Shown: positions 10,307 to 62,422, numbered from the stretch's first letter. The stretch: DNA of 64,000 nucleotides from Sulfolobales archaeon (GCA_038841535.1 JAWBTQ010000002.1:77463-141462), one strand, 5' to 3'. Notes: a model not told the origin generated them from the letters alone. Numbers and translations are program-made.

Positions 10307-10325
10307 GAATAATATGGGCAAAGGG

Positions 10326-41740: not shown

Positions 41741-41746
41741 TCTCAG

Positions 41747-45344: not shown

Positions 45345-45561
45345 ATGCTCCCTATTTCTAGCTAACTGAGGATACTTCTTAAAACAGCTCTAGTTCTAGG
45401 CTTGGGTAGATCGTATAGTAGGTTTCCCATGTCGCAGCTCACGGAGAATCTCTAGTGATGTATAGGTACCCTATCTCCTCGAACTTAAAATAGTTTCTGA
45501 TCTCTAGGTTACGTAATCTTCCCTTTATTAGCAGCCTGGTTTTCGCGATTACGGACGTGGC

Positions 45562-47721
45562 ATGGCGCACACGCATTCTCGGACTAGGGTTTACCCCCTA
45601 GGTTTATGGTATGGAGTCGGCAAAGTTACACCAGTCTTCGATGCGTCTAAAATCCGCGATGACCTGAGGAAGGTCAAGGATCTGGGTGTAGGCTTTGTTA
45701 GACTTTGGGTAAACTGGAGAGATATCGAGCCGAGACCGAGTGCGTACGCATTTGGAGAGTTGAAGGAGGCTATGGACGAGGCCGAGGAGATCGGGCTTTC
45801 CGTAGTAATCCAAGTCTACTTAGAGTTTGGACCAGATTGGCTTCCGAAACTCTACCCCGATGCCGTTTTTATTTCTGAGTCCGACCTAAAGCTGTATCAC
45901 CAAGGTAGCCCAGGAGTTTGCCTAGACCACCCCTCTGTGAGAAGGCATGCTGAGAGGTTTCTTGTGGAGCTAGCTGGGTTCGCAAAGAAGTACAGCAGCC
46001 TATATGCTTGGGACGTATGGAGCGAACCACAGATAGTCCAATGGGTGTTCAGGCTTGGGTTTCCTAAGTCAGTCTACTGCTACTGTGAGCACAGCGTGAA
46101 GAGGTTTAGGGAATGGCTTAAGGAGGTCTACGTAAGTATCGACGCGCTAAACGCGGCATGGCATAGGTCCTTCAATTCGTTTGAGGAGGTTCAGCCACCT
46201 AGGTTTGTAGTCCTTCACTATGCTAAGGAGAACATTGACTGGGTAGAGTTTAACGTCTGGAAGCTCAAGGAGGATCTGCGTTGGAGGGTCGAGACTATCA
46301 AGAAAGTCGACCGGGAGCATCTCGTAGCAAGTCACGCAGCTACGTCGTCAGTTCTATTGAACCCCCTATTTGGGCACCCAGACGACTGGGAAATGTCTAA
46401 AGTCGTAGACGTTTGGGGTACGTCTCTATACCCTAAGCACGCTCACAGAGTCCCTGATCCAGCTGTAGATAGCTTCATTCTAACCTCAGTAAGGTCTTCT
46501 GCTGACGCATGGGGAAAGAGCTTTTGGATAGGGGAACTCCAGGGAGGCCAAGGAGTTGGGGGCCTAAAGATAGCGGACGTAGTACACCCAGAAGACATTA
46601 ACGTATGGTTCTGGCAGTCCGTAGCCCACGGCTCTAAGGGAGCCTTCGTATACCACTCCTATCCAATGATGTGGGGTTACGAGTCTTCGGGATACGGTCT
46701 ACTAGACCCCGCTGGCAATTTAACGAATAGAGCAAGGGCTTTAGCGTCTATATCAAACATAGTGAGAGAGTACGGAGACATGCTTGCAGAAGCTAGACCT
46801 TTGAAAGCTAAGTGCGCACTATTATATAATAAGCACTCGTACAGACTGCTGTGGGTTCTTCAGGAGGAGTCGGCAGCAGCATTCTCTAGGTCTCTCCTGG
46901 GTGTGTACAGAGTTCTATACAAGCATAACGTTCCTGTAGATGTGGTCTCCATAGAGCAGTTCATGAACGACCCGAGTAGCTATGTGCTACTGATGGCTCC
47001 CTTCTCGATAGCTGTTTCCAAAGAATTCTCTGGTGCTCTAGAGAGGTTTGTATCGAGCGGAGGTGTGCTTTTGGCGGATGCTAGATTTGGGTGGTTCAAG
47101 GAGGACGGCTGGATAGACGGAGAGATACCGTGCTACAACCTCTCAAGAGTTCTCGGTGCAAGAGAGAAGTCCTGCAGAAGCTTAACTGAGTCGAAGGCTG
47201 TTATGAGGGTCGTGAACGAGGTAGTCCCAGGGCTCAAGTGTGGCGACATCGTGGGGATGTGGCACTATGCTGAAACCATGGAGTTATTAAGTGAGAACAC
47301 TATCCCTGTAGCTGAAGTAGGTAGTGCAGAAACAGCTCTAACGATTAACAATTACGATAGGGGTTTCGCACTGTGGGTTGGCACATCCATAGGGTTAGCC
47401 TATGAGAACATGCGTGACCTAGGCATAGAGAAGCTTATTAAGGGAGTTGTGGAGCTTGCTGGAATACGTCCACCCGCAATAGTGGATCCAGTAGGTGCTC
47501 TCGAAGTTAGAGTTCTTACTGTGGGAGGAGGAGGCGAGAGACTAGTGGTAATGATAAACCAAGGCTTAGAGGAGGTGAGAGCGAAAATAGCTTTCCCGGA
47601 GGACAAGTGGTTAGAGAAAATAAGAGACATAATAACGGGCAAGTCCTACGTGGTTAGAGGAGGTGAGCTCGAGCTGTCTGTGCCCCCTAGAGGTGTAATC
47701 GTTGGGTACTCAAGGCAGTAG
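45562..47721 (+). CDS. clan GH-A glycoside hydrolase, GH42/GH35-like (beta-galactosidase or exo-beta-glucosaminidase-like)
   Basis: 719 aa. VRLWVNWRDIEPRPSAY, YAWDVWSEPQ (candidate acid/base Glu), FWIGELQGGQG (candidate nucleophile Glu), followed by trimerisation-like and C-terminal beta domains. Confidence 0.75.
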   Translation: MAHTHSRTRVYPLGLWYGVGKVTPVFDASKIRDDLRKVKDLGVGFVRLWVNWRDIEPRPSAYAFGELKEAMDEAEEIGLSVVIQVYLEFGPDWLPKLYPDAVFISESDLKLYHQGSPGVCLDHPSVRRHAERFLVELAGFAKKYSSLYAWDVWSEPQIVQWVFRLGFPKSVYCYCEHSVKRFREWLKEVYVSIDALNAAWHRSFNSFEEVQPPRFVVLHYAKENIDWVEFNVWKLKEDLRWRVETIKKVDREHLVASHAATSSVLLNPLFGHPDDWEMSKVVDVWGTSLYPKHAHRVPDPAVDSFILTSVRSSADAWGKSFWIGELQGGQGVGGLKIADVVHPEDINVWFWQSVAHGSKGAFVYHSYPMMWGYESSGYGLLDPAGNLTNRARALASISNIVREYGDMLAEARPLKAKCALLYNKHSYRLLWVLQEESAAAFSRSLLGVYRVLYKHNVPVDVVSIEQFMNDPSSYVLLMAPFSIAVSKEFSGALERFVSSGGVLLADARFGWFKEDGWIDGEIPCYNLSRVLGAREKSCRSLTESKAVMRVVNEVVPGLKCGDIVGMWHYAETMELLSENTIPVAEVGSAETALTINNYDRGFALWVGTSIGLAYENMRDLGIEKLIKGVVELAGIRPPAIVDPVGALEVRVLTVGGGGERLVVMINQGLEEVRAKIAFPEDKWLEKIRDIITGKSYVVRGGELELSVPPRGVIVGYSRQ

Positions 47722-48508
47722 TGGAGCGAAAATCCGCGACTTGCCCCAGGAGTGGTACGAAAGAGTGCTCGGACTGCTCGACTACATCGCTAAAACCCAG
47801 CGCAAAAATATTGAGAAAGCAGCCGAAATCGTCGCAGACTCTATATTCAAGGGACATGTGTGTTTTCTGTTTGGGTCAGGTCATGCTGCTATACCAGTGA
47901 TGGAGATTTTTCCTAGATATGGGTCGATGGTTGGGTTCGTGCCCATAGTAGACCTCCCTCTAATATCCTTCCTTAGGCTAGTGGGGGATATGGGCTATCC
48001 GCAGTTTGATTGCATAGAGAACTCGCCTGAGTATGGGCGCAGAATAGTTGAGAACTACGAGATTCACAGAGACGACTGCGCCATTGTCTTCTCTCATTCT
48101 GGTACTACGCCCGTCACCTTAGAGGTAGCACTACAGATTAAGAGCAGGGGTTCTAAAGTGATTGGGATAACCTCGGTAGCTCATTCGTTGAGGGCTAGAC
48201 CACGACATCCGTCTGGATTAAAGCTATTCGAGGTTGCTGATGTGGTTATAGATACAGGAGTACCACCGGGAGATGTTTCCATAGAGGTATTTAGCGGGGG
48301 AAAGCCTATCAAAGTAGGACCTCTCTCCACAATAGCGTTCGTGTTCGTAGCTAATTTTGTGCTCTTAAGCACCTATGAGCAATTGCTCAAAGCCGGTTAC
48401 GACCCTATAACGCTGCCAGTTAGAGGTTTCGACTCAGATGCCGACATCCTCATGAGGAAAGCCCTCAGTAAGTACAGAGAGCTATACTCTAAACACATCT
48501 CTAAGTAG
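47702..48508 (+). CDS. SIS (sugar isomerase) domain protein, UPF0309-like
   Basis: 268 aa. IEKAAEIVADSIFKGHVCFLFGSGHAA, AIVFSHSGTTPVTLEVALQIKSRGSKVIGITS, HPSGLKLFEVADVVIDTG. The start is uncertain (TTG 47702 overlaps the upstream gene by 20 nt). Confidence 0.7.
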   Translation: MGTQGSSGAKIRDLPQEWYERVLGLLDYIAKTQRKNIEKAAEIVADSIFKGHVCFLFGSGHAAIPVMEIFPRYGSMVGFVPIVDLPLISFLRLVGDMGYPQFDCIENSPEYGRRIVENYEIHRDDCAIVFSHSGTTPVTLEVALQIKSRGSKVIGITSVAHSLRARPRHPSGLKLFEVADVVIDTGVPPGDVSIEVFSGGKPIKVGPLSTIAFVFVANFVLLSTYEQLLKAGYDPITLPVRGFDSDADILMRKALSKYRELYSKHISK

Positions 48509-48516
48509 GGGATGGA

Positions 48517-49473
48517 ATGGTGTTGCGCAACGTCGTATTGTCAATAGACGTTGGTGGAACTAAGATTGCGTACGCGTTTATCGACTCCGGAGGAGGAGTT
48601 CATGATTACGGTATCGTAAAAACTAGGAGAGCTGGGGGAAGGCAGGTTATCAACCAGCTCAGAGAGATCGTTAGATCCTGTCGCTACAAGAAGGTTGTTG
48701 GCGTGGGGGTGAGCGTGCCAGGCATAGTTAGAAACGGATCGGTTACCTGGGCACCTAACATTAGGGAATGGAGGGACGTCCATTTAGCCGATCTGATAAG
48801 CAGGGATATCCCCGAGGGAGGCCTAATAGAGGTCGTAGACGATAGGACGGCTAGCGCTCTGGGTGAGATGTGGCAGGGGGCGGCAAAGAGTCTATCAAAT
48901 TTCATAGTGCTAGTCATAGGGACGGGAGTCGGTGCCGGCGTAGTTATTGACGGTAGGCCTGTCCATGGCTCAGCTGGTGTTTCGGGAGCTGTAGGTTGGT
49001 GGTTACTATCGCGAAGTCTTCCACATCGGAGTACCCGGAGAGGTTTTCTCGAAGAAGAGATAGGGGGATTAGCTCTCGATAGAATCGCCAGAAGGTACTC
49101 TTCATCAAGAACCTCAACAGGCTCTCCACTTCGCGAGCTATGCGAATTCGTCGATTCGACTTGCTTGTTTAGAGCTTACGACCTTGGGCACGATCTCGCA
49201 AAAAACACCCTAGAAAGGAAAGCAGTATTACTCGGGATCCTCATAGCTAACTTACTGAGCCTGCTTAACCCCGAGGCCGTTATACTAAGTGGTAGCGTCG
49301 GAGTTGAGCTAGGTAAAAGGTTTATGCCGCTCATCAGGAGAGTAGTTGAGGCAGTAGCGCAACCGTACGCCACCAAGAGCTACCGCTTAGAGGTATCAAG
49401 CCTAGGTCACTTGTCCTGCTTATACGGCTCTGCCTACTTCGTATTGAAAAGAATGGGGAGCATAGGTAAGTAA
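48517..49473 (+). CDS. ROK-family (ASKHA) sugar kinase, zinc-motif-less
   Basis: 318 aa. LSIDVGGTKIAYAF, VDDRTASALGE, VIGTGVGAGVVIDGRPVHGSAG. The ROK signature GE[IL]GH...CxCGxxGC is replaced by GAVGWW...HRSTRRGF. Confidence 0.75.
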   Translation: MVLRNVVLSIDVGGTKIAYAFIDSGGGVHDYGIVKTRRAGGRQVINQLREIVRSCRYKKVVGVGVSVPGIVRNGSVTWAPNIREWRDVHLADLISRDIPEGGLIEVVDDRTASALGEMWQGAAKSLSNFIVLVIGTGVGAGVVIDGRPVHGSAGVSGAVGWWLLSRSLPHRSTRRGFLEEEIGGLALDRIARRYSSSRTSTGSPLRELCEFVDSTCLFRAYDLGHDLAKNTLERKAVLLGILIANLLSLLNPEAVILSGSVGVELGKRFMPLIRRVVEAVAQPYATKSYRLEVSSLGHLSCLYGSAYFVLKRMGSIGK

Positions 49474-49482
49474 TAAGACCAC

Positions 49483-49488
49483 TTTTTT
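49483..49488 (+). terminator. oligo-T tract after the ROK kinase gene
   Basis: A T6 run 10 nt after the stop, 29 nt before the GH84 start. It could be a partial terminator or simply part of an A/T-rich promoter. Confidence 0.2.
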
Positions 49489-49516
49489 GTTCTGTTAGTT
49501 TCTAACTCGTGAGACT

Positions 49517-50731
49517 ATGCTGCTTGGAGTAGTTGAGGGGTTCTATGGGCCCGCCTGGGACTGGGTTGAGAGGATTAACATTATGGAGTTTCTGAGTAGG
49601 GTAGGTCTCAATGCCTACATATACGCACCTAAGTGGGATCCTCGTCATAGGGATTGGTGGAGGATTCCATACGAACCTGTCTTTGCTGATAGACTAAGCA
49701 TGCTATTAGACTCGGCTTCTAGGTACGGAATCAGAGTTGTTTTCGCCCTAAGCCCGGGCTTAGACATGGACTACTCGTCAGAGCACGATGTTAGATTGCT
49801 AGTAAAGAAGTTCTCTTGGGTTATGGAGCTGGGGGTTGAAGATTTAGCCGTGTTTTTAGACGATATCCCGCCGGTTCTTAGAGGAAAAGGGTTCAAGACT
49901 CTAGCAGAAGCTCAGTCTTCCTTAGTGAACAAGTTGCTTAGGGAGCTGAGACCTAAGTCGCTGGTGTTCTGCCCTACCTATTACCACAGTCTGCGGGAGG
50001 ACTACATGAGAGAGATAGGCGATCTCGTTGATCCCGAGGTATACATAGTTTGGACTGGTATGTGGGTAGCCTCACACAAAATAGACGTAGGGGACTTAGA
50101 ATCCGTGGCCAAGCTCTTAAAGAGAAAGCCGTTCATATGGGATAACTACCCAGTTAACGACTACTTCACCGTTTACGGAATTACGAGGCTACACCTAGGG
50201 CCCCTAAAGAACAGACCTAAAGAGTTCACCAAATATATCTCCGGCTACGCATCTAACCCCATGAATCAGTATGAAGCATCTAAGATACCTCTATACACTA
50301 TCGCAGAAGCCTTACTAAGTACGTCATACGACCCCGAAAAGAGTTTATCGGACGCTATAGACAGCATACTCAATAAGAACTCTAGGTACTGGTTTAAGAG
50401 GTTTGTGGAGTTTAACCGAGCTAACTTTATGGACTTAACGGAACGTACTATAACTAGAGAAAATGCTGACGAGGTGATCGAGCTAGTCAGAGAACTTCGT
50501 GAATCTATAGGAAACAAGAAGTTGGTTAGAGAAGTTGACTCAGTGTTAAGCAAAATGGAGTCCATAGCCAGGTACTCTAAAAACGAGGTATCCTATCTAA
50601 GCTGGCGAGTTCAGACTGCAGGTGAGTACAGTCCCCCAATAACAGCTGAGAGAATGTTGAAGGAGGTGTTCGGAGTAGTAGCCCGACTCACTCCTTGGTA
50701 CAGTAAGGCCTACGTAAAGCCCGAGGTGTAG
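49517..50731 (+). CDS. GH84-family beta-N-acetylglucosaminidase (O-GlcNAcase/NagJ-like)
   Basis: 404 aa. GVVEGFYGPAW, NAYIYAPKWDPRHR, AVFLDDIPP (catalytic Asp-Asp, codons 49859-49864), CPTYY, VWTGMWV, FIWDNYPVNDY. Near-colinear with the NagJ/OGA catalytic domain. Confidence 0.85.
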   Translation: MLLGVVEGFYGPAWDWVERINIMEFLSRVGLNAYIYAPKWDPRHRDWWRIPYEPVFADRLSMLLDSASRYGIRVVFALSPGLDMDYSSEHDVRLLVKKFSWVMELGVEDLAVFLDDIPPVLRGKGFKTLAEAQSSLVNKLLRELRPKSLVFCPTYYHSLREDYMREIGDLVDPEVYIVWTGMWVASHKIDVGDLESVAKLLKRKPFIWDNYPVNDYFTVYGITRLHLGPLKNRPKEFTKYISGYASNPMNQYEASKIPLYTIAEALLSTSYDPEKSLSDAIDSILNKNSRYWFKRFVEFNRANFMDLTERTITRENADEVIELVRELRESIGNKKLVREVDSVLSKMESIARYSKNEVSYLSWRVQTAGEYSPPITAERMLKEVFGVVARLTPWYSKAYVKPEV

Positions 50732-50734
50732 AAA

Positions 50735-52018: not shown

Positions 52019-52393
52019 TCGGAGAATCTGCGAGTCCACACGACTTCGAGCCTCTTAGGGAAGTACGAAACGGAGATCTCGTAATTTTAAAGCCTCTTCA
52101 ATATTCTATTCATAAAAGCAGAGCTATGTCGAGGTTCCCCAAAGAGATGTTAAAACTAATGTGCTAAGCGTTATTACGAGAAGACTAAAGTAGAGTAGAA
52201 CGTGTGGATCATTACGCTCATATTGGGACCTACAGTACTCAGTTACTAGTGGAGGGTTAATCAGCAAATAGAATCTTAGAGTATGGACAGCACTTATAGC
52301 CACACCATGTACGGCAGCAAGTCACAGATTTTTCCAGTGTCCTGGGTCCTCTCTTAGTCTTGGGAGCTCTGGTTACGTAACTCTGTGGTTTAA

Positions 52394-54448
52394 ATGATTC
52401 TAGCGATCAACTCACGGGTGCTAACTACGCCTCTACAGAAGTGGGTGATTTATGTTATAGTTGTAGTAGTCATAGCTGCAGTTGCTGTCGGTATAGCAGC
52501 CCAGTTACTCCTTCCGCCACCAGCCGTTCAACCAACTCCCACACCTACCCCTACCGCAATTACCCCCGCAACAACACCGACTCCCACAACACCTCCAACA
52601 GTGACACCTACGACTACTCCTTTACCTACAACACCGACTCCCACACCGACTCCTGGGGAGAAGGTAGTATACTTGTACGGTAGTTGGCCGCCCCCTGAGA
52701 ACTATATTACTAACCCCCTGGTAGGTACCATAGGGATGCTTCACTACTATACCCACATGCCACTAGTGTTTCTAATACCCGCTGATAGAGCACCATTACC
52801 TGGGTTACTCGGTGAGTACCCTAAGCTCATTTCGCTCTTAGCTGATGCCTGGGTATTCAAAGAGTATCCAGGTTCGAATTTAACTATAGCGGAGGTAAAG
52901 CTTAAGAAAACTGGTTGGAGTGATGGTAATCCGCTAACAGCTGAGGACGTTTTTATTAGTATAGTGTACTACGGATGCTTCTACAACTCATTTCCCGGCT
53001 ACTATGAGGTAATTAATGAAACAGCTATAAGGAGGTACTGGAACGCTACGGGCATTAGATTCGAAACACTCACCTCGTGGATGTGGTCTTGGTACGGGAT
53101 TTGGGCATCAAGAGAATACTACAAAGTGGAGCCATTGTGGCCGATCTGTATAGAGCAGTACAGGCTACTAAAGGAGCGCTACTACCTAACAACAGTGGGG
53201 AAGCCTGTACCTAAGGAATTAACGGATAGACTTACTCTGCTCAATAAGTGGTTCAGGGGGAACCTAACGGAGATAGCTAAGAAGGTCCCAGCATACCTAG
53301 CTAATGGACCCTTCTATCCAGCTAAGATCACAGAGTCCCACATTATTTGGGAGAAGAACCCGTACTTCTGGAACACTAAAGGTATGGCAATAGATAGATG
53401 GGTGATGCTAAGCACTCCTGAGACTGCAGTCATAATAGAGAACATCGGTCGCGGAGCCGTTACGTGGTCGACGCTAACATCAATAGTGCCAGACATCGTT
53501 GACGCACTTAAAGCTATAAACAGAGACCTATTGGTGTACCCACTAACTCACTATCGCATGGTCGGCATACTCTTCAATTTCCAGAGATACCCGATGAACG
53601 ATACACACTTCCGTAGAGCGATCGCTTACCTTGTAAATAAAGACGCCATTTTCCAAACTCTTCCCTTCTACGCTAAGGAGACCATACTAAACATAGGGCT
53701 ACCGGAGGAGTTCTTGTGGAAATGGATCTCAAGCGACGACTTAAAGTACTTCACAAGGTACACCTACGACCCCAAGAAGGCGGAAGAAGAACTGCTCGCC
53801 GGAGGCTTCAGAAAAGACCCTAGAACTGGTAAGTGGCTTCTACCGAACGGTACTCCCATATCCATTACCATAACGATTACCTCTGATCCCATGTATGTAA
53901 TACCAGCTGAAGCTATTGCCGGGATGCTTAACAGCTTCGGAATCACGACGCAGATAAGTGTTGTTCCATCAGCTGTTTGGACGACACTCGTTCGGACCTA
54001 CGCTACTACCTACGCCGTAGAGAGAAATTACGACATAACCATCTGGATATCTAGCTTGATGTACGCTACTGCTCACCCGTACTGGACATGGTCCCACATA
54101 CTCATGCTCGGATGGGGTGCTGGAGGAGCAATAGCTTTCCCGAACTGGTGGAACATACAGCATCCGTGGAAGAGCTGCACTAACGACGAAAACATATCTA
54201 GGTTGTTCACTATACTCTACAACAACCCTGGTACAGACGTCGAGAAGTGCGCCATTAAGGCGTTCGCATGGGTCGTCAACGAATATGTGCCTGTCTTACA
54301 TTTGTACGAATATGGTGTCTGGGTATTCATGAACAGTAAGGACATCAAGGGATGGCCCCCGGAGGAAGACCCGGTTTGGAGCGTAAGATTAATGGACGCT
54401 GGCTACTATCGAGCTCTCCTGCTACTCTCGATATATTACCTGCGTTAA
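52394..54448 (+). CDS. ABC transporter substrate-binding protein, family 5 (Opp/Dpp type), membrane-anchored
   Basis: 684 aa. An N-terminal TM helix is followed by a 47-aa Thr/Pro linker and then a large SBP_bac_5-like body. The position directly upstream of two Dpp-type permeases and two ATPases supports the call. Confidence 0.85.
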   Translation: MILAINSRVLTTPLQKWVIYVIVVVVIAAVAVGIAAQLLLPPPAVQPTPTPTPTAITPATTPTPTTPPTVTPTTTPLPTTPTPTPTPGEKVVYLYGSWPPPENYITNPLVGTIGMLHYYTHMPLVFLIPADRAPLPGLLGEYPKLISLLADAWVFKEYPGSNLTIAEVKLKKTGWSDGNPLTAEDVFISIVYYGCFYNSFPGYYEVINETAIRRYWNATGIRFETLTSWMWSWYGIWASREYYKVEPLWPICIEQYRLLKERYYLTTVGKPVPKELTDRLTLLNKWFRGNLTEIAKKVPAYLANGPFYPAKITESHIIWEKNPYFWNTKGMAIDRWVMLSTPETAVIIENIGRGAVTWSTLTSIVPDIVDALKAINRDLLVYPLTHYRMVGILFNFQRYPMNDTHFRRAIAYLVNKDAIFQTLPFYAKETILNIGLPEEFLWKWISSDDLKYFTRYTYDPKKAEEELLAGGFRKDPRTGKWLLPNGTPISITITITSDPMYVIPAEAIAGMLNSFGITTQISVVPSAVWTTLVRTYATTYAVERNYDITIWISSLMYATAHPYWTWSHILMLGWGAGGAIAFPNWWNIQHPWKSCTNDENISRLFTILYNNPGTDVEKCAIKAFAWVVNEYVPVLHLYEYGVWVFMNSKDIKGWPPEEDPVWSVRLMDAGYYRALLLLSIYYLR
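52514..52654 (+). repeat. low-complexity Thr/Pro-coding repeat (linker of the binding protein)
   Basis: PPPAVQPTPTPTPTAITPATTPTPTTPPTVTPTTTPLPTTPTPTPTP. The DNA shows reiterated ACACCGACTCCCACA-type units. Confidence 0.7.
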
Positions 54449-54471
54449 GATCAGTCTACAGGCTGGTGTAA

Positions 54472-55500
54472 ATGGAGTTAACGGGAGTTTTTCCGTTCAT
54501 TAAGTTACTCTCGAAGAGGGTTTTATATGCGATTTTAACAATTATGGTAGCCGTCTCGGTAACTTTCGTGGCTATAAGGTCTATGCCTGGAGATGTGCTT
54601 TACACGCTGGCAGTATCGCTAGCAGAAGAGCTGAGGATCTCCGTAGAGGAGGCCAAGAAGATAGTGTTCTACATATACTATGGGATTGACGTCGAAGAAC
54701 CGATCTACCTACAGTACCTTAAGTATGTCATTGGGTTACTGCAGGGGAACCTAGGGTACTCGACATACTTCAAAAGACCCGTTACTTACGTTGTAGCCAG
54801 GGCGCTAGGCTGGACAGCGTTTACTCTTTCCGTGGGGATCTCTCTGTCTTTCGCTATTGGGATACTGATAGGGATGCTGGCAGGTTTTAAGCGCGGAACT
54901 AAGTTTGACGCCATAGTATCTCTGACCTCGACAGTACTGTCGGCTATACCGGGATACGTAGTAGCGCTACTACTGTACATCATGCTATCTGCGCGACTAG
55001 GACTCCTACCAGCAAGAGGAGCCTACTCACCGCACGTAGAACCGGGACTAAACCTAGCGTTTATGATCGACGTACTCTACCACGCAGCTCTCCCAGTACT
55101 CACATACGTAGTGATAACTTTCTCTGGCTGGACGCTACTCATAAGATCGAACGTGGCGAAGATACTGGAGGAGGACTTTCTCAAGTACGCTGAGGCGCGG
55201 GGAATTAGCAGGAGGAGAATAGTGACTACCTACATAGGTAGAAACTCCATACTGCCAATAGTGCCTCTCCTGGCTATAAGAGTGGGGAGCATGATTGGCG
55301 GCTCTACCCTCATAGAAACGATCTTCGCGTATCCCGGTATGGGGTATTACCTATCTCTAGCTCTTAGCATTAGAGATTACGGTCTTCTCCAGGGCATATA
55401 CTTTATGATGATAGTCGCAACTATAGTTGCGGTAATAGTGGTCGAGTTCCTCACCCCGTTAATAGATCCAAGAGTTCGACGCGAGGTAGTAGCAACATGA
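54472..55500 (+). CDS. ABC transporter permease (DppB/OppB-like)
   Basis: 342 aa, 6 TM, with a BPD_transp_1 EAA-type loop (LKYAEARGISRRRIVTTYIGRNSILP). Confidence 0.9.
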   Translation: MELTGVFPFIKLLSKRVLYAILTIMVAVSVTFVAIRSMPGDVLYTLAVSLAEELRISVEEAKKIVFYIYYGIDVEEPIYLQYLKYVIGLLQGNLGYSTYFKRPVTYVVARALGWTAFTLSVGISLSFAIGILIGMLAGFKRGTKFDAIVSLTSTVLSAIPGYVVALLLYIMLSARLGLLPARGAYSPHVEPGLNLAFMIDVLYHAALPVLTYVVITFSGWTLLIRSNVAKILEEDFLKYAEARGISRRRIVTTYIGRNSILPIVPLLAIRVGSMIGGSTLIETIFAYPGMGYYLSLALSIRDYGLLQGIYFMMIVATIVAVIVVEFLTPLIDPRVRREVVAT

Positions 55501-56384
55501 CTTCCTACAGGAGTTCTAAGTCGAGACTTAAGCTCATATACTTAGACTTCGTGAGACCAGTAATCCTAAGCGGTAGAGGAGTCCTAGGTATCGCTATCAT
55601 AGTCTCCATGATCTTTATGGCTACATTAGGGCCCGAGCTCATACCTCTAGATACGGGTGTTAAGCCGCAGATGAAGTGGTGTCAGCCCTCTCTTGAGCAT
55701 CCGCTAGGGTGCGACTACCTCGGCCGCGACCTGTTCTCACTGGTAGTTCACGGTTCGAGAGAGGTCTTCCTTATACCCTTCTGTGCTACTTTGATTGGTG
55801 TGGTCGTAGGGCTATCTATAGGTCTGTTAGCAGGTTATATTGGCGGGTTGGCTAGAAGAGCTCTAACCTCAGTAACTGACACGTGGTTAACAATACCGTC
55901 GTTTCCAGTAATATTTATATTAGCCTACGCTTTACCTAAGTCTCCGGTCTCCATAATACTTCTACTAACTCTCTTTAGCTGGCCCGGGCTAGCTAGAGCG
56001 GTAGCCGCTGAAGTATCCTCATTGAAGCGCAGAGACTACATCGAGGCGTGCGTTAACCTAGGCCTTGGGAGGGGCTACATACTGTTCAGAGAGATAGGAC
56101 CTCACATACTCCCATTTGTAGCAATCAACTTCGCCTCGGTTTTCGTCGCAAACATGACGTCTCTAATAGGCATAGTCCTCCTCGGGGTAGCCCCACTGAA
56201 CCCAACTAATTGGGGCTACTTACTAAACCAGATGATATTTACTTACAAGGGACTGCTCCTAGCTAATGCATCAGTAGTGATAGTGTTGATGATACTCATG
56301 TTGGTTTTTATAAAGCTGGGTGTAGTGTTCTTTGCTCAATCCCTCGAAGAGGTCTTTAACCCAAGGTTGAGGAGGTATGAGTGA
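55497..56384 (+). CDS. ABC transporter permease (DppC/OppC-like)
   Basis: 295 aa. HPLGCDYLGRDLFS, typical of the OppC N-terminus, and YIEACVNLGLGRGYILFREIGPHILP. The ATGA start/stop overlaps the upstream permease. Confidence 0.9.
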   Translation: MTSYRSSKSRLKLIYLDFVRPVILSGRGVLGIAIIVSMIFMATLGPELIPLDTGVKPQMKWCQPSLEHPLGCDYLGRDLFSLVVHGSREVFLIPFCATLIGVVVGLSIGLLAGYIGGLARRALTSVTDTWLTIPSFPVIFILAYALPKSPVSIILLLTLFSWPGLARAVAAEVSSLKRRDYIEACVNLGLGRGYILFREIGPHILPFVAINFASVFVANMTSLIGIVLLGVAPLNPTNWGYLLNQMIFTYKGLLLANASVVIVLMILMLVFIKLGVVFFAQSLEEVFNPRLRRYE

Positions 56385-57384
56385 AAAACTCGATAAGAAC
56401 CAGAAGCTGGTTATCCGTGACCTGAGAATGGAGTACCTAGTGAGAGAAGGGACCGTAAAAGCGGTAAACGGAGTCAACCTCACTATACCTGAGGGGAGGA
56501 TTACCGCTATCGTGGGCGAGAGCGGCTCCGGGAAAACCTCTCTGGTTGAGACCTTTCTTAAAATTTTACCTAAAAACGCGAGAATAAGGTCCGGTAAGGC
56601 CCTTCTCAAGCTCTCCAACGGAACAGCTGTAGACCTGATAGAAGCGAGCGATAGCTTAATGAGAAAGCTAAGAGGGAGAGTCGTGGGATATATACCTCAA
56701 GGAGCGCAAAACTCTTTAAACCCTGTCTTAACCATCGAGCAGCACTTCCTCGAAACCCTCAGGGAGCATGGGACTCACTCTAAGGAGGCTATCGAGGAGA
56801 GAGTTCGCGCAATGCTTTCTCTCGTTAGGCTAGACCCTGAGGTCGTCTTGAAGAAGTACCCTCATGAGCTAAGTGGAGGCATGAAGCAGAGAGTTGTGAT
56901 AGCATTGACTATGTTACTCCAACCGGAACTAGTAGTTCTAGACGAGCCAACTTCGGCTTTAGACATCTTCTCTCAAAGGGTTCTGCTGAACATACTCTAC
57001 AAGATCCAGTCCACTTATAAGAATACCATGGTTTTGATCACACACGATATCCCGATAGTATCAGAGCTAACCGATAGGGTGGCGGTTCTCTACGCAGGAG
57101 CTATAGTAGAGTCCGCAGATACGTACGAGGTATTCAAGGAGCCTATACACCCCTATACCTCTATGCTTATATCTGCCATACCTTCGGTAGTAGACGTCTA
57201 CCTAAAGAGGGTGCCTAAGCCGGTACCTGGAGAGCCCCCCAGTCTTCTAAATCCACCACCAGGCTGCAGATTCCATCCTAGATGTCCTCACGCTTTTGAG
57301 AAATGCAGGCTTAAGGAGCCTCCTACGGTAGAAGTGCACTCAGGTCACTTCGTTAGTTGCTGGCTGTACGCCGAGGGTGTGTAG
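56377..57384 (+). CDS. ABC transporter ATPase (DppD/OppD-like)
   Basis: 335 aa. GESGSGKTS, LSGGMKQRVVIA, LVVLDEPTSALD, and a C-terminal oligo_HPY region HPYT...PPGCRFHPRCPHAFEKC. Confidence 0.9.
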   Translation: MSEKLDKNQKLVIRDLRMEYLVREGTVKAVNGVNLTIPEGRITAIVGESGSGKTSLVETFLKILPKNARIRSGKALLKLSNGTAVDLIEASDSLMRKLRGRVVGYIPQGAQNSLNPVLTIEQHFLETLREHGTHSKEAIEERVRAMLSLVRLDPEVVLKKYPHELSGGMKQRVVIALTMLLQPELVVLDEPTSALDIFSQRVLLNILYKIQSTYKNTMVLITHDIPIVSELTDRVAVLYAGAIVESADTYEVFKEPIHPYTSMLISAIPSVVDVYLKRVPKPVPGEPPSLLNPPPGCRFHPRCPHAFEKCRLKEPPTVEVHSGHFVSCWLYAEGV

Positions 57385-57386
57385 AG

Positions 57387-58421
57387 ATGAAGAGGGTTGT
57401 CGCAGTAGAGAAGGTAAGTAAGACCTACTCCAGAGGGTTATTTAAGAAGAGGCTTATCAGTGCAGTGCAGAGCGCTTCTCTCGAGGTATCTAGCGGTGAG
57501 TTAATTAGTATCGTTGGTGAGAGCGGCTCCGGAAAGACTACTCTGGGAAAGTTGATGACTGGCTTAGTCCTTCCTAGTAGCGGGAGGCTAATCTGGAGAG
57601 ACGTGGACGTAATTAAGAACGGAAGAATAGTCAATAGAGAGTTCTACTCTTCGAATAGACATAGATACGTATACGTCCATCAAGACCCGTATAGTGCTCT
57701 AAATCCTTCTAAGAACGTATGGGACACTCTCAACCCGGTGATCAGTAAGTACAAGAAGCACTTAGGAACATCGGATAAGTATAAAACAGTGATAGAGCTC
57801 CTAGAGGAGGTAGGACTAGTTCCAGCAGATTACTTCATCGATAAGTATCCTCACCACCTCTCTGGAGGTATGAGGCAGAGACTTGCTCTAGCGAGAGCTC
57901 TGGCAGCTGATCCTCACTTCATAGTGGCAGACGAAATAGTGAGCATGGTAGACCCGTCAATAAGGATATCGCTAGTGAACCTCCTCAAGGATATAGTGAA
58001 GGCGCGCAATATCTCGGTAGTGTTCATATCTCACGACCTCGGAATATCTATTTATGCCGCTGAAAACAACTTCATGTACGTGATGCTTAACGGGGTGGTC
58101 GTAGAGTACGGTCCTGCCTACGAGATAGCTTACTCCCCCGAACATCCGTATACAAGAGCCCTAATATCTAATACATCCGTTCCACTACCCTCACGAGAGA
58201 AGCGTGTGAGAGAGCTAGATGGCGTTGCGGTCGAAGACAGTAAACCCAGGCCAAACACACTGTGCCCATTTGCTTCTCTATGCCCGTTTGTTGATTCAGA
58301 GTGCTCTTCTTTTGAGCTTGGGTTTTACTTAAAAGCAGGTGCTAAGCACTTCTCAGCGTGTTTAAAGACTGGAAAGCTACCTAAGTGGAAGCCCAGCTGG
58401 CTCCAAACCCTATCTGGGTAG
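57387..58421 (+). CDS. ABC transporter ATPase (DppF/OppF-like)
   Basis: GESGSGKTT, LSGGMRQRLALARAL, FIVADEIVSMVD, HPYT. The start was moved to ATG 57387 (MKRVVAVEKV), 3 nt after the upstream stop; the track ORF starts at 57357. Confidence 0.9.
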   Translation: MKRVVAVEKVSKTYSRGLFKKRLISAVQSASLEVSSGELISIVGESGSGKTTLGKLMTGLVLPSSGRLIWRDVDVIKNGRIVNREFYSSNRHRYVYVHQDPYSALNPSKNVWDTLNPVISKYKKHLGTSDKYKTVIELLEEVGLVPADYFIDKYPHHLSGGMRQRLALARALAADPHFIVADEIVSMVDPSIRISLVNLLKDIVKARNISVVFISHDLGISIYAAENNFMYVMLNGVVVEYGPAYEIAYSPEHPYTRALISNTSVPLPSREKRVRELDGVAVEDSKPRPNTLCPFASLCPFVDSECSSFELGFYLKAGAKHFSACLKTGKLPKWKPSWLQTLSG

Positions 58422-58426
58422 AGCAG

Positions 58427-58627
58427 ATGAGAGCACACCCAATTATTCTAGTCGACCTTCTAGCATTAGCCGTAGTCACATTAGTACTTTCCGCTGTAGC
58501 TCTAGCAATACTACAGCCATCTGATGAAGCATATCTGCCGGCACTCTCAGCCTTATTTATTTCTTTAGTCCTCGTCTTTGTAGCCCTAGTCGGGTTTAGG
58601 AGAGCTATTAAAGTAGAGAAAACGTAG
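58427..58627 (+). CDS. small two-TM membrane protein (hypothetical)
   Basis: 66 aa from ATG 58427 (MRAHPIILVDLLALAVV...), 6 nt after the ATPase stop. Two hydrophobic helices. Support comes only from position and hydrophobicity. Confidence 0.35.
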   Translation: MRAHPIILVDLLALAVVTLVLSAVALAILQPSDEAYLPALSALFISLVLVFVALVGFRRAIKVEKT

Positions 58628-58673
58628 AGTCGTTACGTAATCCTTTCCCTTTAAACTTCTAACCCCAAAAAGT

Positions 58674-61343
58674 ATGGGGGAAATATTGAGAACTATTTAT
58701 ATCGTAATCCTGACTATAGTAGTGGTCGCGGCTATAGTCACCCCCACAGTTTTCCGGGTTCTTAAGCCTGAGACGTCGGAAACATCTACACCTATAGAAA
58801 CTACGGCAGTAGCTTTCACTCTAGTACAGCTACCGCTTAGAAAAAGACCATTCGTGTGGACCTGGATCTACAGCACGAAATCCAGCGAAGTCGCCGAGCT
58901 CCTGAGCAGATTCGGAGGTCGCGCGATAGATGTGGTCTCACCTGATTGGTACTATCTTACCGAGGACTTGAGTCTAGGTTTATACTACGAGAGAGGGGCG
59001 GAAGACCCAGGTTTTGTGAAACTTAGTAAAGACTCAGGAATCTTGATAGTCCCGATGGTTGTTTCTTCTAAAGGAGATAGAGTAAAGAACCTAATAACGA
59101 GTCGGGAAGCTATCGAGAGGTTCTCCAGGCAACTCGTAGAGACAGCAGCTAGAATGGGATACTCCGGCTTTAATATAGACTTCGAGGTAAGCCTCCCACT
59201 CTACTCTAGAGAGTTCGCTGAATTCATAGACTATCTTGCTAAGAGGCTTCATGAGGCTGGACTTATATTAACTGTAGCAGTGCCCGCCAAGAGGGCTGAG
59301 ATCCGTAGCGACTATCTAATGACTTACGACTACCAACTTCTAGCAAAAACAGACGCTGACTACATTATGATCATGGCATACGACTACTACGAGATAGTGG
59401 GACCTAAGCCGGTCGCCCCCATGCCTTGGGTAGAGGACTGTATTGAGTACTCCCTAAGGTTCTTCCCTAGAGAAAAACTCGTTCTCGGCGTCCCTAATTA
59501 CGGAAAAGTTTGGGACGACAAGGGCAAGTTAGTGAAGTGGTTACTGCACCAGGATTATCTGTCCATGGTATCCCAGGGAGAGCGCTTTGTAGTAGACCTA
59601 AGCTCGAGAGAGCTTATGGCTAAAACAGCCGAGGGAGTAGCATACTACGTTGATGGAGAGATGGCGTACTACCGAGCAAAGCTCGCACTCTCCCATCGCT
59701 TAGCCGGTGTAGCAATATGGAGACTCGACGGGGGAGACCTCGGCTTATGGGAGCTTCTCGAGGATTTCCGTCTCTCGCATGCGGGACCCCCCGACTACCC
59801 TCTAGCTAAGTGGATAGAGGCCTACTCAGGTAATTATCAAAAGTCAAACAGAACGGAAGTCAACTGGATAGTGGTCCACGTCACCGAGGGCTCGACTCAG
59901 TCTGCTATTAACTGGTTCCTAGACCCACGATCCGGAGTTTCAGCCCATTATATAATCTCGTTGGGAGGATCGGTCTATCAAATGGTTATGGAGAAAGACA
60001 TCGCTTGGCATGCGGGTAACAAGCAGTACAACCTACTGTCTATAGGTATAGAGCATGAGGGCTTCGTTAAGGCAAGGATGTTTACGGAATCTCAATACAG
60101 ATCGTCCGCCCGCTTAATAGCATATCTAGCCTATAAGTATGGCATATCATTAGATCACGTAGTCGGCATAGCTCCTCCGGATCCCGCGGAAAGTAAAGGG
60201 ATAATAGGGCACGACCAAGTTCCTGACCCGAGGAATCAGACGATAGGTGGAGGAATCTCCCACCACACTGATCCTGGACCATACTGGGATTGGCGTTTAT
60301 ACATGGAGCTCGCGAGGAAGTACTACGAAGCCTTAGTAAGTGGAAATTATGAGAAGGCCTTTATCGCAGTGTGGTGGGGTGTTTACTCGGATAAGTGGAG
60401 CATGAATAGAGATGTCTGGCTTAAGCAGGTTAATGAAGCTCTAGCTAAGCTCAAGAGAGCTGGGGTTGACGCTGTGTTCTTTCTAGTTAAGGACCCCTGG
60501 GGCTACGTATATTACAATAGCTCCTACGCACCTCTGAACCCGAAGTATTCTTGGGACGTTCTCGGCGATGTAGTGAAGGTCGCTAAAAAATATGGAATAG
60601 AGGTTTACGTATATATAAACGCTCTATCCGAGGGAGAGACCAGTCCCGGGTTCTATTTACAGCAGAACCCCCACTTCGCTCTCTATGATGAGTACGGAAA
60701 CATGCTCGGTTGGGTAGACCCCTACTGTGAAGAATACGTGCAGAGGCTCCTCGACATAGTAGCTGAGATATTGACTAAGTACCCCGAGGTCAGAGGGGTA
60801 CAACTAGATAGAATAAGAGCTCCTCAGAGCAACGTCATCGGAAAATGCTCTTCGGAGGGTTTCTGGAAGCAATATGGTAAGAACCCCAAAGACGATATAC
60901 GACTCTACCAGAAGTTTCTAGTTGACGGTATAACTAGCATAGTCAAGAGAGTTTCTGCTTTAGCTAAGAGCGCTAGGCCCGGCATTCACGTGTCTGCCGC
61001 AGTATTCCCGAGTCCAACCGCCGTTCATACCGTACTCCAGGATTGGATTTATTGGGTTAACGAGGGTGTGGTCGATGCTGTCGCAACAATGACCTACACA
61101 ATAGACTTTACAACGTTTAAGAGTTACGTGACATCACAGCTCGGAACTATTAAAGACCCTAGTAAGCTCCTTATAGGTGTAGGAGCGTGGCAGCTATTAG
61201 ACGAAATGCTGGTATCCCAACTGAGTTATGTGATAGAGGAGCTTAATCTCAAGGGAGCTGTTCTGTTTAACTTAGACAGCCTAATAGACAAGAACCTGGC
61301 CGAAACCCTTACCAAGTTCAGACTTACATACTATTGCCGATAG
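58674..61343 (+). CDS. membrane-anchored three-domain glycan hydrolase: GH18-like + N-acetylmuramoyl-L-alanine amidase (Amidase_2) + GHL10/DUF187-like
   Basis: 889 aa.
- TM anchor: aa 8-27.
- GH18: aa ~58-362 (nt ~58845-59759), with GFNIDFE (DxE at 59178-59186), MIMAYDY, GVPNYG, AIWRLDGGD.
- Amidase_2: aa ~393-545 (nt ~59850-60308), with NWIVVHVTEG, VSAHYII, IAWHAGN, LSIGIEHEG, IGHDQV, HHTDPGPYWDW.
- GHL10-like: aa ~560-840 (nt ~60351-61193), with GVDAVFFLVKDPWGYVYYNS, GIEVYVYINA, VRGVQLDRIR, QDWIYWVNEGVVDAVATMTY. Confidence 0.85.
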   Translation: MGEILRTIYIVILTIVVVAAIVTPTVFRVLKPETSETSTPIETTAVAFTLVQLPLRKRPFVWTWIYSTKSSEVAELLSRFGGRAIDVVSPDWYYLTEDLSLGLYYERGAEDPGFVKLSKDSGILIVPMVVSSKGDRVKNLITSREAIERFSRQLVETAARMGYSGFNIDFEVSLPLYSREFAEFIDYLAKRLHEAGLILTVAVPAKRAEIRSDYLMTYDYQLLAKTDADYIMIMAYDYYEIVGPKPVAPMPWVEDCIEYSLRFFPREKLVLGVPNYGKVWDDKGKLVKWLLHQDYLSMVSQGERFVVDLSSRELMAKTAEGVAYYVDGEMAYYRAKLALSHRLAGVAIWRLDGGDLGLWELLEDFRLSHAGPPDYPLAKWIEAYSGNYQKSNRTEVNWIVVHVTEGSTQSAINWFLDPRSGVSAHYIISLGGSVYQMVMEKDIAWHAGNKQYNLLSIGIEHEGFVKARMFTESQYRSSARLIAYLAYKYGISLDHVVGIAPPDPAESKGIIGHDQVPDPRNQTIGGGISHHTDPGPYWDWRLYMELARKYYEALVSGNYEKAFIAVWWGVYSDKWSMNRDVWLKQVNEALAKLKRAGVDAVFFLVKDPWGYVYYNSSYAPLNPKYSWDVLGDVVKVAKKYGIEVYVYINALSEGETSPGFYLQQNPHFALYDEYGNMLGWVDPYCEEYVQRLLDIVAEILTKYPEVRGVQLDRIRAPQSNVIGKCSSEGFWKQYGKNPKDDIRLYQKFLVDGITSIVKRVSALAKSARPGIHVSAAVFPSPTAVHTVLQDWIYWVNEGVVDAVATMTYTIDFTTFKSYVTSQLGTIKDPSKLLIGVGAWQLLDEMLVSQLSYVIEELNLKGAVLFNLDSLIDKNLAETLTKFRLTYYCR

Positions 61344-61702: not shown

Positions 61703-62422
61703 CTACTTTGAGGGCAGTCTAGACCTTAGTGCTTCGACTAAGCTGTCTACTGAGGAGTGTGTCGACACTATTAATGGCAGCATCTCCCTATCCGCTAGCC
61801 TTATCGCTAGAACGTCCACAGTTTTCGGCTGATGTATGACTACAGCCGCAGGTTTTGTTGGTGCTACTCGAACAGCTACCATCGGGGAGCGCCCAGTGCT
61901 TACCGCAGTAAAGATTAGTGCCCTTATGCTAGAAAGTCCCATTATACTCCAAAACTCGTTACCCCTAAGTCCCTCAATTGCCTCATAGCTGTTAATGACA
62001 GTGTAGCCGTATATGGGTAAAGCTATGAACCTAGAGTTAACAATGTACCCTTCTACAGCAGTAACTAGTTCGTCGAGCTTTATAGGGCGACTGAACTCTC
62101 TGATATCTAGAACACCCGCAATAAGCAATCCCATGCTCTGAGCTAAACCCTTAGTTACGGTATAGCCTGAGAGTTCATCGTACGTCATTAGGGCCTCAAT
62201 AAACGTCTTAACGAACTTCATACCGGGTCTCCTCCTGCTTTTCTCATAGTCACTGATTACACTAGAAGCCACCTTAAGGTACTTTGCTAGCTCTACTTGA
62301 CTCAGTCCGAAAACAGTCCTCCACTTTCTAACCGCTTGACCTGGGTTATCGCTGAACACTATATCGCCAGCGATCTTCTTTTTAACTTCATCGACTACGT
62401 ACCTAGGTATCATCTTATCCAC
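61703..62422 (-). CDS. XRE-type HTH transcriptional regulator with uncharacterised C-terminal domain
   Basis: 239 aa. AVRKWRTVFGLSQVELAKYLKVASSVISDYEKSRRRPG is a classic XRE/Cro HTH. The C-terminal ~150 aa are conserved-looking but unassigned. Confidence 0.7.
   Translation of the reverse strand: MDKMIPRYVVDEVKKKIAGDIVFSDNPGQAVRKWRTVFGLSQVELAKYLKVASSVISDYEKSRRRPGMKFVKTFIEALMTYDELSGYTVTKGLAQSMGLLIAGVLDIREFSRPIKLDELVTAVEGYIVNSRFIALPIYGYTVINSYEAIEGLRGNEFWSIMGLSSIRALIFTAVSTGRSPMVAVRVAPTKPAAVVIHQPKTVDVLAIRLADREMLPLIVSTHSSVDSLVEALRSRLPSK

Follow-up and report, generated by a model that had tools for sequence, protein, structure and literature searches.

A candidate peptidoglycan-utilisation locus in a Sulfolobales archaeon

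The present analysis concerns a locus at positions 45562-61343 of a 64,000-nucleotide stretch of DNA from a Sulfolobales archaeon (GCA_038841535.1 JAWBTQ010000002.1:77463-141462), the whole of which is hereafter called the window. According to both the listing of open reading frames (ORFs) and the public gene calls, this locus is made of 12 consecutive plus-strand genes (Table 1), encoding sugar enzymes, an ATP-binding cassette (ABC) importer of the Opp/Dpp type, and a putative surface enzyme with three catalytic domains. We consider it reasonably likely that it serves the co-regulated utilisation, i.e. the scavenging, of peptidoglycan by a hot-spring archaeon. The interest of this reading lies in the way a surface enzyme that would dismantle murein is linked, both physically and through regulation, to an importer and to genes of amino-sugar catabolism, and it suggests that the archaeon uses bacterial walls as food and does not merely kill bacteria.

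In the proposed mechanism, the amidase domain of the enzyme would strip the stem peptides off bacterial murein, and its two glycosidase domains would cut the denuded glycan into short oligosaccharides of N-acetylglucosamine and N-acetylmuramic acid (GlcNAc/MurNAc). The molecules taken up by the ABC system would, we infer, be such GlcNAc/MurNAc fragments. In the cytoplasm, the GH42-like enzyme, together with the GH84 enzyme where present, would free monosaccharides, which the ROK kinase would phosphorylate at C6, while the SIS enzyme would abstract the C2 proton of the 6-phosphate and could be either a MurQ-like etherase or a glucosamine 6-phosphate (GlcN-6-P) deaminase. Finally, the GNAT protein probably N-acetylates free amino groups of de-N-acetylated hexosamines, allowing acetamido-dependent enzymes like GH84 to act. 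For the GH42-like, SIS, and GNAT proteins, these reactions are putative.

An original prediction, made by a model from the DNA alone, had already put forward a scheme of outside cleavage, import, and cytoplasmic trimming, with murein preferred over chitin or N-glycans. Both the scheme and the preference are strengthened by the peptidoglycan precedents of all three enzyme domains, by a fusion of GH18 with an S13 DD-peptidase in a sister locus, and by the fact that the enzyme, importer, and cytoplasmic genes remain linked even where relatives are rearranged and have a conserved operator-like palindrome in common. In this context, archaeal peptidoglycan hydrolases are known to exist and the genomes carrying them are enriched for Opp/MppA homologues, the choice between scavenging and killing being left open (PMC12352652). 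The scavenging hypothesis is now directly testable with few recombinant proteins and one DNA motif; if it is true, carbon and nitrogen from bacterial necromass could pass into archaea in geothermal systems.

The surface enzyme and its relatives

Residues 1-57 of the enzyme consist of a transmembrane anchor (a single hydrophobic helix) and a Ser/Thr-rich linker, and the binding protein of the importer likewise has an N-terminal transmembrane anchor followed by a long Thr/Pro-rich linker. On the basis of these N-terminal helices and linkers, both proteins are predicted to be tethered outside the membrane. The first catalytic domain has its best sequence matches (in the PDB including 5jh8) with YdhD, YaaH/SleL, and CHID1-type proteins, not with processive chitinases. 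Its AlphaFold model, of which the predicted local distance difference test score (pLDDT) is about 90, finds its closest folds in SleL of B. megaterium and B. cereus (4s3k/4s3j, 3.6e-20, Foldseek against the PDB), SleL being a cortex-peptidoglycan N-acetylglucosaminidase according to Lambert & Popham 2008, as cited in PMC11218509. The catalytic D-x-E motif stands at the end of strand 4 ('FNIDFE'), E171 being invariant and D169 present in eight of the nine family members, with the exception of P0008, which reads NIVLE. Profile, modelled fold, and D-x-E motif together place this domain in the SleL/YaaH/YdhD subgroup of GH18.

The second domain scores 104.8 bits against the Amidase_2 profile (cutoff 26). 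When it is aligned with E. coli AmpD, H402, H513, D533, and E460 are conserved, and they are invariant in the enzyme family. We take the AmpD residues aligned to H402, H513, and D533 to be the zinc ligands, and the one aligned to E460 to be the catalytic Glu. Two archaea-specific insertions aside, it shows 55-58% identity with the amidase domains of Nonomuraea and Thermoflavimicrobium, and its bacterial relatives number thousands. The conservation of the AmpD residues and this level of identity to bacterial amidases point to an acquisition from bacteria with retention of the murein-amidase chemistry.

As for the third domain, a TIM barrel, the GHL10 profile gives 65 bits (cutoff 27.9) with partial coverage, from 19 to 269 of 311. 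Two GHL10 proteins have been characterised, E. coli DigH (YddW) and C. difficile Cwp19, and both share with this domain the Pfam family (checked for DigH with PF02638, 6e-136) and the fold: BLASTP aligns the domain with DigH at 5e-9, and its model matches Cwp19 at 3e-18 (Foldseek, TMt 0.74). Based on profile and barrel fold, the domain is predicted to be a glycosidase. DigH is a hydrolase specific for denuded glycan, i.e. glycan stripped by amidases (PMC12288456), whereas Cwp19 is a peptidoglycan lytic transglycosylase/muramidase (PMC6016235). The action of DigH on amidase-denuded strands is the order of action that the fusion of amidase and GHL10 domains implies. Unlike these two proteins, the archaeal domain, 25% identical to DigH, is fused to two catalytic domains and belongs to a host without murein.

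Enzymes with this three-domain architecture are very rare: a word-indexed search through 5.8 billion proteins returned about eight clusters of full-length enzymes at 50-91% identity, and an exhaustive HMMER pass over 1.84 billion representatives at 50% identity returned two three-domain representatives, besides relatives with one or two of the domains. The distribution rests on these protein searches, the genome scan having been swamped by the amidase pattern; among the matches listed for the genome collection, one extra full-length locus (L009) was present. No description of a GH18, Amidase_2, and GHL10 architecture was found in a literature search. Such an enzyme may also be of applied interest as a thermostable lytic protein with three functions.

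The gene order is unchanged, except for the lack of GH84, in two sister loci (L004 and L006, 65-70% identity). In the more distant L009 (44%), the enzyme gene, the ABC operon, and the GH42-like gene are still adjacent, the operon with its gene for a 66-residue membrane protein lying on the strand opposite to the enzyme. In L005 (50%), the GH18 motif of the enzyme itself is degenerate and the catalytic Asp is lost; the gene that follows (7738-10563, P0010) encodes a membrane-anchored fusion of GH18 with Peptidase_S13 (312 bits) in which the SxxK and KTG motifs are present. The S13 domain is predicted to be an intact DD-peptidase of the PBP4/DacB type; for an organism that has no murein, such an extracellular enzyme makes little sense unless its substrate is bacterial peptidoglycan. 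L009 also contains, at 2700-3876 on the minus strand and about 6 kb from the enzyme gene, an acetamidase/formamidase-family gene that is apparently split into two ORFs.

The importer and a shared operator-like site

The importer combines a family-5 binding protein, two permeases, and two ATPases with an oligo_HPY C-terminal region, which is the composition of the Opp/Dpp type. The 66-residue membrane protein is probably an accessory subunit, its gene always standing 3' of the second ATPase gene and being kept in L004, L006, L005, and L009.

A palindrome precedes the GH42-like, binding-protein, and enzyme genes, each time 6 or 7 bp upstream of a TATA-like box (Table 1). The 9-mer GTTACGTAA occurs at these three sites only in the 64 kb (45508, 52372, and 58632), whereas 0.38 occurrences would be expected and none of 100 shuffles reached the count, and in L004 and L006 this palindrome likewise precedes the binding-protein and enzyme genes, in the corresponding position. 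This sharing suggests that the locus consists of three transcription units with one operator-like site, all of which are probably governed by one transcription factor binding TTACGTAA. The shared site provides independent support for a joint function of surface enzyme, importer, and cytoplasmic enzymes.

The convergent HTH_3 gene downstream of the enzyme gene was considered as the regulator and set aside as a candidate only, for it is not conserved in the sister loci. It is flanked by a related palindrome, CTACGTAG (61572-61579 and 62766-62773), an 8-mer that is not significantly enriched in the window (five sites against 1.8 expected). Two extra TTACGTAA 8-mers are also present in the window, one of them at 35257, inside the ORF at 34535-35401.

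With the same peptidoglycan target, the work could be divided differently, the ABC system importing stem peptides as amino-acid food in the manner of MppA/Opp while the sugar enzymes serve another imported substrate. The combination of SBP_bac_5 with oligo_HPY ATPases, the presence of DppA among the best PDB matches, and the peptides that the amidase would free are all compatible with this. So are the resemblance of the organism to a peptide fermenter, with aldehyde ferredoxin oxidoreductase (AFOR), electron transfer flavoprotein (ETF), and acyl-CoA dehydrogenase, the precedent of D-peptide use set by Pyrococcus Pab87 (PMC2651629), and the genome-level association between peptidoglycan hydrolases and Opp/MppA (PMC12352652). 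Nevertheless, we judge it unlikely: the importer and glycosidase/kinase promoters have the same operator-like site, the importer remains next to the GH42-like gene in L009, no peptidase or D-amino-acid enzyme is encoded in the locus, and an oligosaccharide binder of Thermotoga is as good a match to the binding protein as DppA. Besides, sugar import by the Opp family is established in hyperthermophiles, which further speaks against peptide import.

The same regulatory evidence bears on the idea that the enzyme is primarily an antibacterial weapon against live competitors or prey, set beside a generic amino-sugar locus. Archaeal peptidoglycan hydrolases do kill bacteria (PMC12352652, PMC4241558), and an enzyme with three lytic domains would make a powerful lysin. 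On the other hand, the enzyme is predicted to be membrane-anchored and not secreted, it has the operator-like site in common with uptake and catabolic genes, and the parts co-occur in at least four lineages, so that a role purely as a weapon seems very unlikely; killing and feeding are, in any case, not mutually exclusive.

The cytoplasmic enzymes

If the locus is directed at peptidoglycan, the imported fragments would first meet the GH42-like protein. This protein scores about 120 bits with characterised GH42 enzymes against about 480 bits with a large Acidobacteria clade, and is 46% identical to a Caldivirga homologue. Both the catalytic and the trimerisation domain of GH42 are present, as is the three-domain fold, the AlphaFold2 model of the protein (pLDDT 88) superimposing on GH42 (3tts) with Foldseek TM values of 0.83-0.89. 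E155 and E325 are the predicted acid/base Glu and nucleophile, respectively, and the former lies within a motif, W-D-x-W-S154-E155-P, that is invariant in the 23 sequences of the subfamily. In all GH35/42 beta-galactosidases, the acid/base motif is Asn-Glu, the Asn binding the 2-OH of galactose, while the GlmA of Thermococcus has Asp-Glu and binds the C2 amine of glucosamine (GlcN) (PMC6566704). The occurrence of Ser-Glu where Asn-Glu or Asp-Glu would be expected suggests that this protein, apparently cytoplasmic and from a distinct GH42 subfamily, has a specificity at C2 unlike that of either type. An assignment as beta-galactosidase was rejected on the same residue pair, and so was one as GlmA, no GlmA chain being present among the PDB sequence matches at E <= 0.01 or among the top 50 folds.

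The SIS protein belongs to the UPF0309 family, which has been placed beside MurQ as a sister clade and includes NagS (SCO4393), the GlcNAc-6-phosphate (GlcNAc-6-P) dehydratase of Streptomycetaceae (PMC12680351). Its PDB matches are BH3325 (1e-26) and NagS (9eol, 1.5e-18, about 30% identity by eye). The catalytic H53/R64/E94/D179 of NagS correspond to H61/R72/E106/D191 and the phosphate serines are also kept, whereas the GlcNAc-contacting S54/S91/N228 are replaced by A/D/G. NagS homologues from outside Streptomycetaceae, at 26-36% identity, are inactive or nearly so on GlcNAc-6-P (PMC12680351). An identification as NagS was therefore rejected, given the three different contact residues and an identity under the orthologue level (at least 58.7%), as was one as MurQ, given 24.3 bits with PRK05441 (cutoff 168) and a kinship at clade level only; both are kept as mechanistic analogies. 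In this regard, two parallels with Thermococcus drawn in the original prediction do not hold: the first, with its GH35/42-like exo-glucosaminidase GlmA, fails on the Ser-Glu motif, the lack of a GlmA match, and the GH42 fold, and the second, with its GlcN-6-P deaminase, on the SIS protein being of the UPF0309/NagS type and not of the two-SIS GlmD type.

The ROK protein, whose closest matches are glucokinases and ManNAc/GlcNAc kinases, is predicted not to be a repressor, because it has no N-terminal helix-turn-helix (HTH). Together, the SIS (UPF0309), GH42-like, and ROK genes form a triad that is conserved in Caldivirga maquilingensis (L089 8099-12148) and in Acidobacteria. In the three Acidobacteria loci (L090, L091, and L096, about 8100-14600), a major facilitator superfamily (MFS) transporter always adjoins the triad, a PIG-L deacetylase and a GntR/UTRA regulator stand beside it in two, and a GH2 of the CsxA type lies about 8 kb away in the third. 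Judging by this company (MFS, PIG-L, and GntR/UTRA), the triad is a module for amino-sugar disaccharides. The module is widespread, occurring in Caldivirga and in many Acidobacteria, but uncharacterised, and no known specificity fits its enzymes. The archaeal locus has the GNAT gene where the bacterial triad loci have the deacetylase.

Such neighbours, once including the CsxA-type GH2, are what one would also expect of the use of chitin or chitosan in the Thermococcus manner, with a GH18 chitinase, import of chitobiose, a GH42-like exo-beta-glucosaminidase, a ROK kinase acting on GlcN, and a SIS-type GlcN-6-P deaminase. A GH18 domain is indeed present, and Thermococcus employs Opp-type importers and the GH35/42-like GlmA (PMC6566704). 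We find this reading quite unlikely, since the GH18 domain is of the SleL/YdhD/CHID1 type and without a chitin-binding module, the intact MurNAc-L-Ala-type amidase and the DigH/Cwp19-type domain have no part in chitin breakdown, and a sister locus encodes a DD-peptidase. In addition, the GH42-like enzyme is devoid of the amine-binding Asp-Glu of GlmA, and neither a deacetylase nor a chitinase with chitin-binding domains is encoded in the locus or in the 64-kb window.

The GH84 gene is an accessory gene, present in this lineage only among the versions of the locus. Its product matches TtOGA (8e-63) and human O-GlcNAcase (OGA, about 1e-50) in the PDB and contains the catalytic Asp-Asp pair in 'FLDDIP', as well as 'WDNYPVND'. 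The GNAT protein next to it, kept in L004 and L006, comes from a small, archaea-only family. The acetyl-CoA motif R-G-R-G-I-A is present and the PDB matches are 3n7z, 4my0, and 2ozg; no Pfam match extends past about residue 140, whereas the alignment with 3n7z reaches residue 220, and the 427 residues are an Eis-like length. GH84 catalysis requires the 2-acetamido group of the substrate, which is why a GNAT restoring the N-acetyl group on de-N-acetylated residues could be a coherent partner of GH84. An overlapping GH84-GNAT pair also occurs at L094 8743-11293, the GH84 being 67% identical to that of the window, in an otherwise unrelated archaeal context where three genes for GH130 mannoside phosphorylases lie nearby. 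The OGA of eukaryotes and bacteria, in which GH84 is joined to a GNAT-fold pseudo-HAT (histone acetyltransferase), is comparable in that a GH84 of the OGA clade is encoded beside a GNAT in two unrelated contexts. It differs in that the archaeal genes are separate, the GNAT is of the Eis type with an intact acetyl-CoA motif, and no O-GlcNAc transferase (OGT) is seen. The GNAT protein was also considered as an OGA-type pseudo-HAT, and this was rejected for want of any PDB match to OGA or to bacterial acetyltransferase homologues at E <= 0.1.

The OGA-like character of GH84 and the mannoside phosphorylases near the L094 pair, to which a weak GH85/ENGase-like signal in the GH18 domain may be added, would suit a turnover of glycoconjugates of the organism itself or of other archaea, i.e. 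the chitobiose core of S-layer N-glycans or the pseudomurein of methanogens. This we regard as highly improbable: the Amidase_2 domain has an intact active site very similar to bacterial murein amidases, a sister locus carries the S13 DD-peptidase fusion, the GHL10 precedents are murein-specific, and most versions of the locus have no GH84.

Several observations nonetheless weigh against peptidoglycan as the substrate. Regarding the enzyme, GH18 members also cleave chitin and N-glycan cores, no cell-wall-binding domain could be recognised in it, and the Asp-Asp-Tyr found at the end of strand 4 in GHL10 proteins, whose second Asp (Asp196) has been proposed to be catalytic in Cwp19 (PMC5765458), is replaced by D712-R713-I714, a triplet that is invariant in the enzyme family and stands opposite F-D-D-Y of DigH in the alignment. 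The first Asp alone is retained, which makes catalysis by the GHL10 domain uncertain. Regarding import, the binding protein is weakly similar to characterised proteins, with DppA and a Thermotoga mannoside binder matching about equally. Regarding catabolism, the Acidobacteria triad resembles a chitobiose/GlcN pathway rather than a MurNAc one, precedents do not explain what an acetyltransferase does in a catabolic route, and Pfam and NCBIfam scans of the window detected no MurQ, NagA, NagB, or PIG-L, which leaves the route to central metabolism incomplete as seen. The original prediction had rightly pointed out that the locus encodes no deacetylase, and these scans extend the statement to the whole window.

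Building on the peptidoglycan reading, a more far-reaching proposal can be made, which we hold only tentatively. A peptidoglycan-utilisation regulon under a single regulator would make hot-spring Thermoproteota direct consumers, possibly contact-dependent predators, of bacteria. Within it, the Ser-Glu GH42 would be a cytoplasmic exo-beta-N-acetylmuramidase or hexosaminidase and the UPF0309 SIS either the etherase of MurNAc-6-phosphate or a GlcN-6-P deaminase of a new kind, while the Eis-type GNAT would re-acetylate de-N-acetylated (lysozyme-resistant) glycan for acetamido-dependent glycosidases like GH84.

Known systems, gene inventory and host

The closest functional analogue is the route by which S. 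aureus recovers MurNAc-GlcNAc through Atl, MurP, and MupG-MurQ (PMC6262408), together with related bacterial routes of cell-wall recycling. There too, a bifunctional extracellular enzyme, amidase and glucosaminidase in one, removes the peptides and breaks the glycan down to disaccharides, which are imported and handled by a dedicated cytoplasmic glycosidase and a SIS-family enzyme. Unlike S. aureus, the archaeon has no murein of its own, its enzyme has three catalytic domains from other families (GH18 and GHL10), and an Opp-type ABC system, a GH42-like protein, and a UPF0309 protein stand in place of a phosphotransferase system (PTS), MupG, and MurQ, respectively. In terms of architecture, the closest analogue is the chitin pathway of Thermococcus kodakarensis (ChiA, an Opp-type ABC system, Dac, GlmA, a kinase, and GlmD; PMC6566704), which has in common an extracellular GH18, an Opp-type importer, an exo-glycosidase of the GH35/42 fold, a kinase, and a SIS protein. 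The archaeal locus differs by the lack of chitin-binding modules and of PIG-L, by Ser-Glu instead of Asp-Glu, by a single-domain UPF0309 SIS, and by the addition of the amidase, GHL10, and GNAT.

Among archaeal peptidoglycan hydrolases (Strock et al. 2025, PMC12352652; the GH25 lysozyme of Aciduliprofundum, PMC4241558), murein hydrolase domains of bacterial type have likewise been acquired and are exposed outside the cell. The survey in PMC12352652 demanded a cell-wall-binding domain, which is absent from the enzyme of this locus, and focused on killing, with a link to Opp/MppA at genome level only, whereas here hydrolase, importer, and catabolic genes stand in one locus. Finally, NagS (PMC12680351) is like the SIS protein in its UPF0309 membership, its catalytic His/Arg/Glu/Asp, and its phosphate serines, and unlike it in three substrate contacts. 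In this archaeal polymer-utilisation locus, probably aimed at bacterial peptidoglycan, several components are of unassigned specificity.

Concerning the genes themselves (Table 1), Pfam and NCBIfam runs on all of them upheld every domain assignment made earlier. The one-strand block that had been described is also real, with 12 genes and not 13, the overlapping and uncalled ORFs at 52441-52683 and 61334-61579 being left out of the count, and its gaps are very short as claimed, save for about 375-425 bp between the GNAT and binding-protein genes, where a promoter is contained. For the binding protein, GTG 52445 is the most likely start, because ATG 52394, at which the ORF opens, abuts the TATA-like box. 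The likely starts of the second ATPase and of the small membrane protein are 57387 and 58427.

Table 1. Genes, enzyme domains, and palindromic sites of the locus and the adjoining regulator-like gene (positions in the window)
Feature	Position	Strand	Evidence and remarks
Palindrome GTTACGTAA	45508..45516		6 bp upstream of TATA-like TTTATTA 45523-45529; before GH42-like gene
GH42-like glycosidase	45562..47721	+	Pfam GH42 + GH42M (4.5e-43; 9.7e-16)
SIS-domain phosphosugar enzyme, UPF0309 family	47702..48508	+	SIS_2 1.3e-33; NCBIfam PRK02947, 219 bits
ROK-family sugar kinase	48517..49473	+	Pfam ROK 5e-38
GH84 beta-N-acetylglucosaminidase, cytoplasmic, OGA-like clade	49517..50731	+	Pfam NAGidase 1.4e-82
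Eis-type GNAT acetyltransferase, 427 aa	50735..52018	+	Acetyltransf_9 2.3e-19
Palindrome GTTACGTAAC	52372..52381		6 bp upstream of TATA-like TTTAAA 52388-52393; before binding-protein gene
Opp/Dpp-family binding protein SBP_bac_5, 667 aa	52445..54448	+	Pfam
ABC permease 1 (BPD_transp_1)	54472..55500	+	Pfam
ABC permease 2 (BPD_transp_1)	55497..56384	+	Pfam
ABC ATPase 1 (ABC_tran + oligo_HPY)	56377..57384	+	Pfam
ABC ATPase 2 (ABC_tran + oligo_HPY)	57387..58421	+	Pfam; ORF opens 57357
Small two-helix membrane protein, 66 aa	58427..58627	+	
Palindrome GTTACGTAA	58632..58640		7 bp upstream of TATA-like TTTAAA 58648-58653; before enzyme gene
Three-catalytic-domain surface enzyme (predicted), 889 aa	58674..61343	+	Pfam GH18 4.7e-18, Amidase_2 5.7e-30, GHL10 8e-18
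GH18 domain of the enzyme	58845..59768	+	about residues 58-365
Amidase_2 domain of the enzyme	59790..60308	+	about residues 373-545
GHL10-like TIM barrel of the enzyme	60339..61340	+	about residues 556-889
HTH_3 (XRE-type) DNA-binding protein	61703..62422	-	convergent with enzyme gene

That the host is an archaeon is supported by several observations. The identical 889-residue enzyme is encoded on three public contigs, on which the same locus genes are called and which are named as metagenome-assembled genomes (MAGs) of 'Sulfolobales archaeon'; the L001 flank beside the locus encodes TFB, Gar1, and the ribosomal proteins S24e and S27e; and the window encodes HerA/NurA, Thi4, ThiN, and two AFORs. 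ETF and acyl-CoA dehydrogenase are encoded in the window as well, and this gene content fits an anaerobic heterotroph. In base composition the locus does not differ from its surroundings, so that no compositional foreignness is seen. Scans of the window for tRNA and Rfam families gave no RNA genes, and a bacterial promoter/terminator scan gave fewer matches than shuffled sequences, its model being bacterial and not applicable to an archaeon.

Upstream of the locus, positions 38572-43111 encode a CpsA-like M20 carboxypeptidase, a protein like 2,4-diaminopentanoate dehydrogenase (Ord-like; DapB_N + DAP_DH_C), and an aminotransferase like glutamate-1-semialdehyde aminomutase. The dehydrogenase and the aminotransferase could be a catabolic pair for diamino acids (ornithine or diaminopimelate, DAP), a link to stem peptides being speculative; as a DAP/ornithine branch, these genes were left out of the model, their NCBIfam scores being below cutoff and unrelated genes intervening. 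Genes for pyridoxal phosphate (PLP)-dependent decarboxylases of the Orn/DAP/Arg type occur on the minus strand at 10818-12059 of the window and at L094 6644-7807, the latter beside the GH84-GNAT pair; should the PLP decarboxylase prove to be a DAP decarboxylase, its presence would be surprising, since the lineage presumably synthesises lysine through aminoadipate. Two conserved ORFs, at 43124-44131 on the minus strand (335 residues) and at 34535-35401 on the plus strand (288 residues), have no Pfam or NCBIfam match. Lastly, a small protein of the metallo-beta-lactamase (MBL) fold, encoded at 37264-37887, scores 87 bits against a cutoff of 240 for subclass B3 metallo-beta-lactamases and is probably a generic MBL hydrolase.

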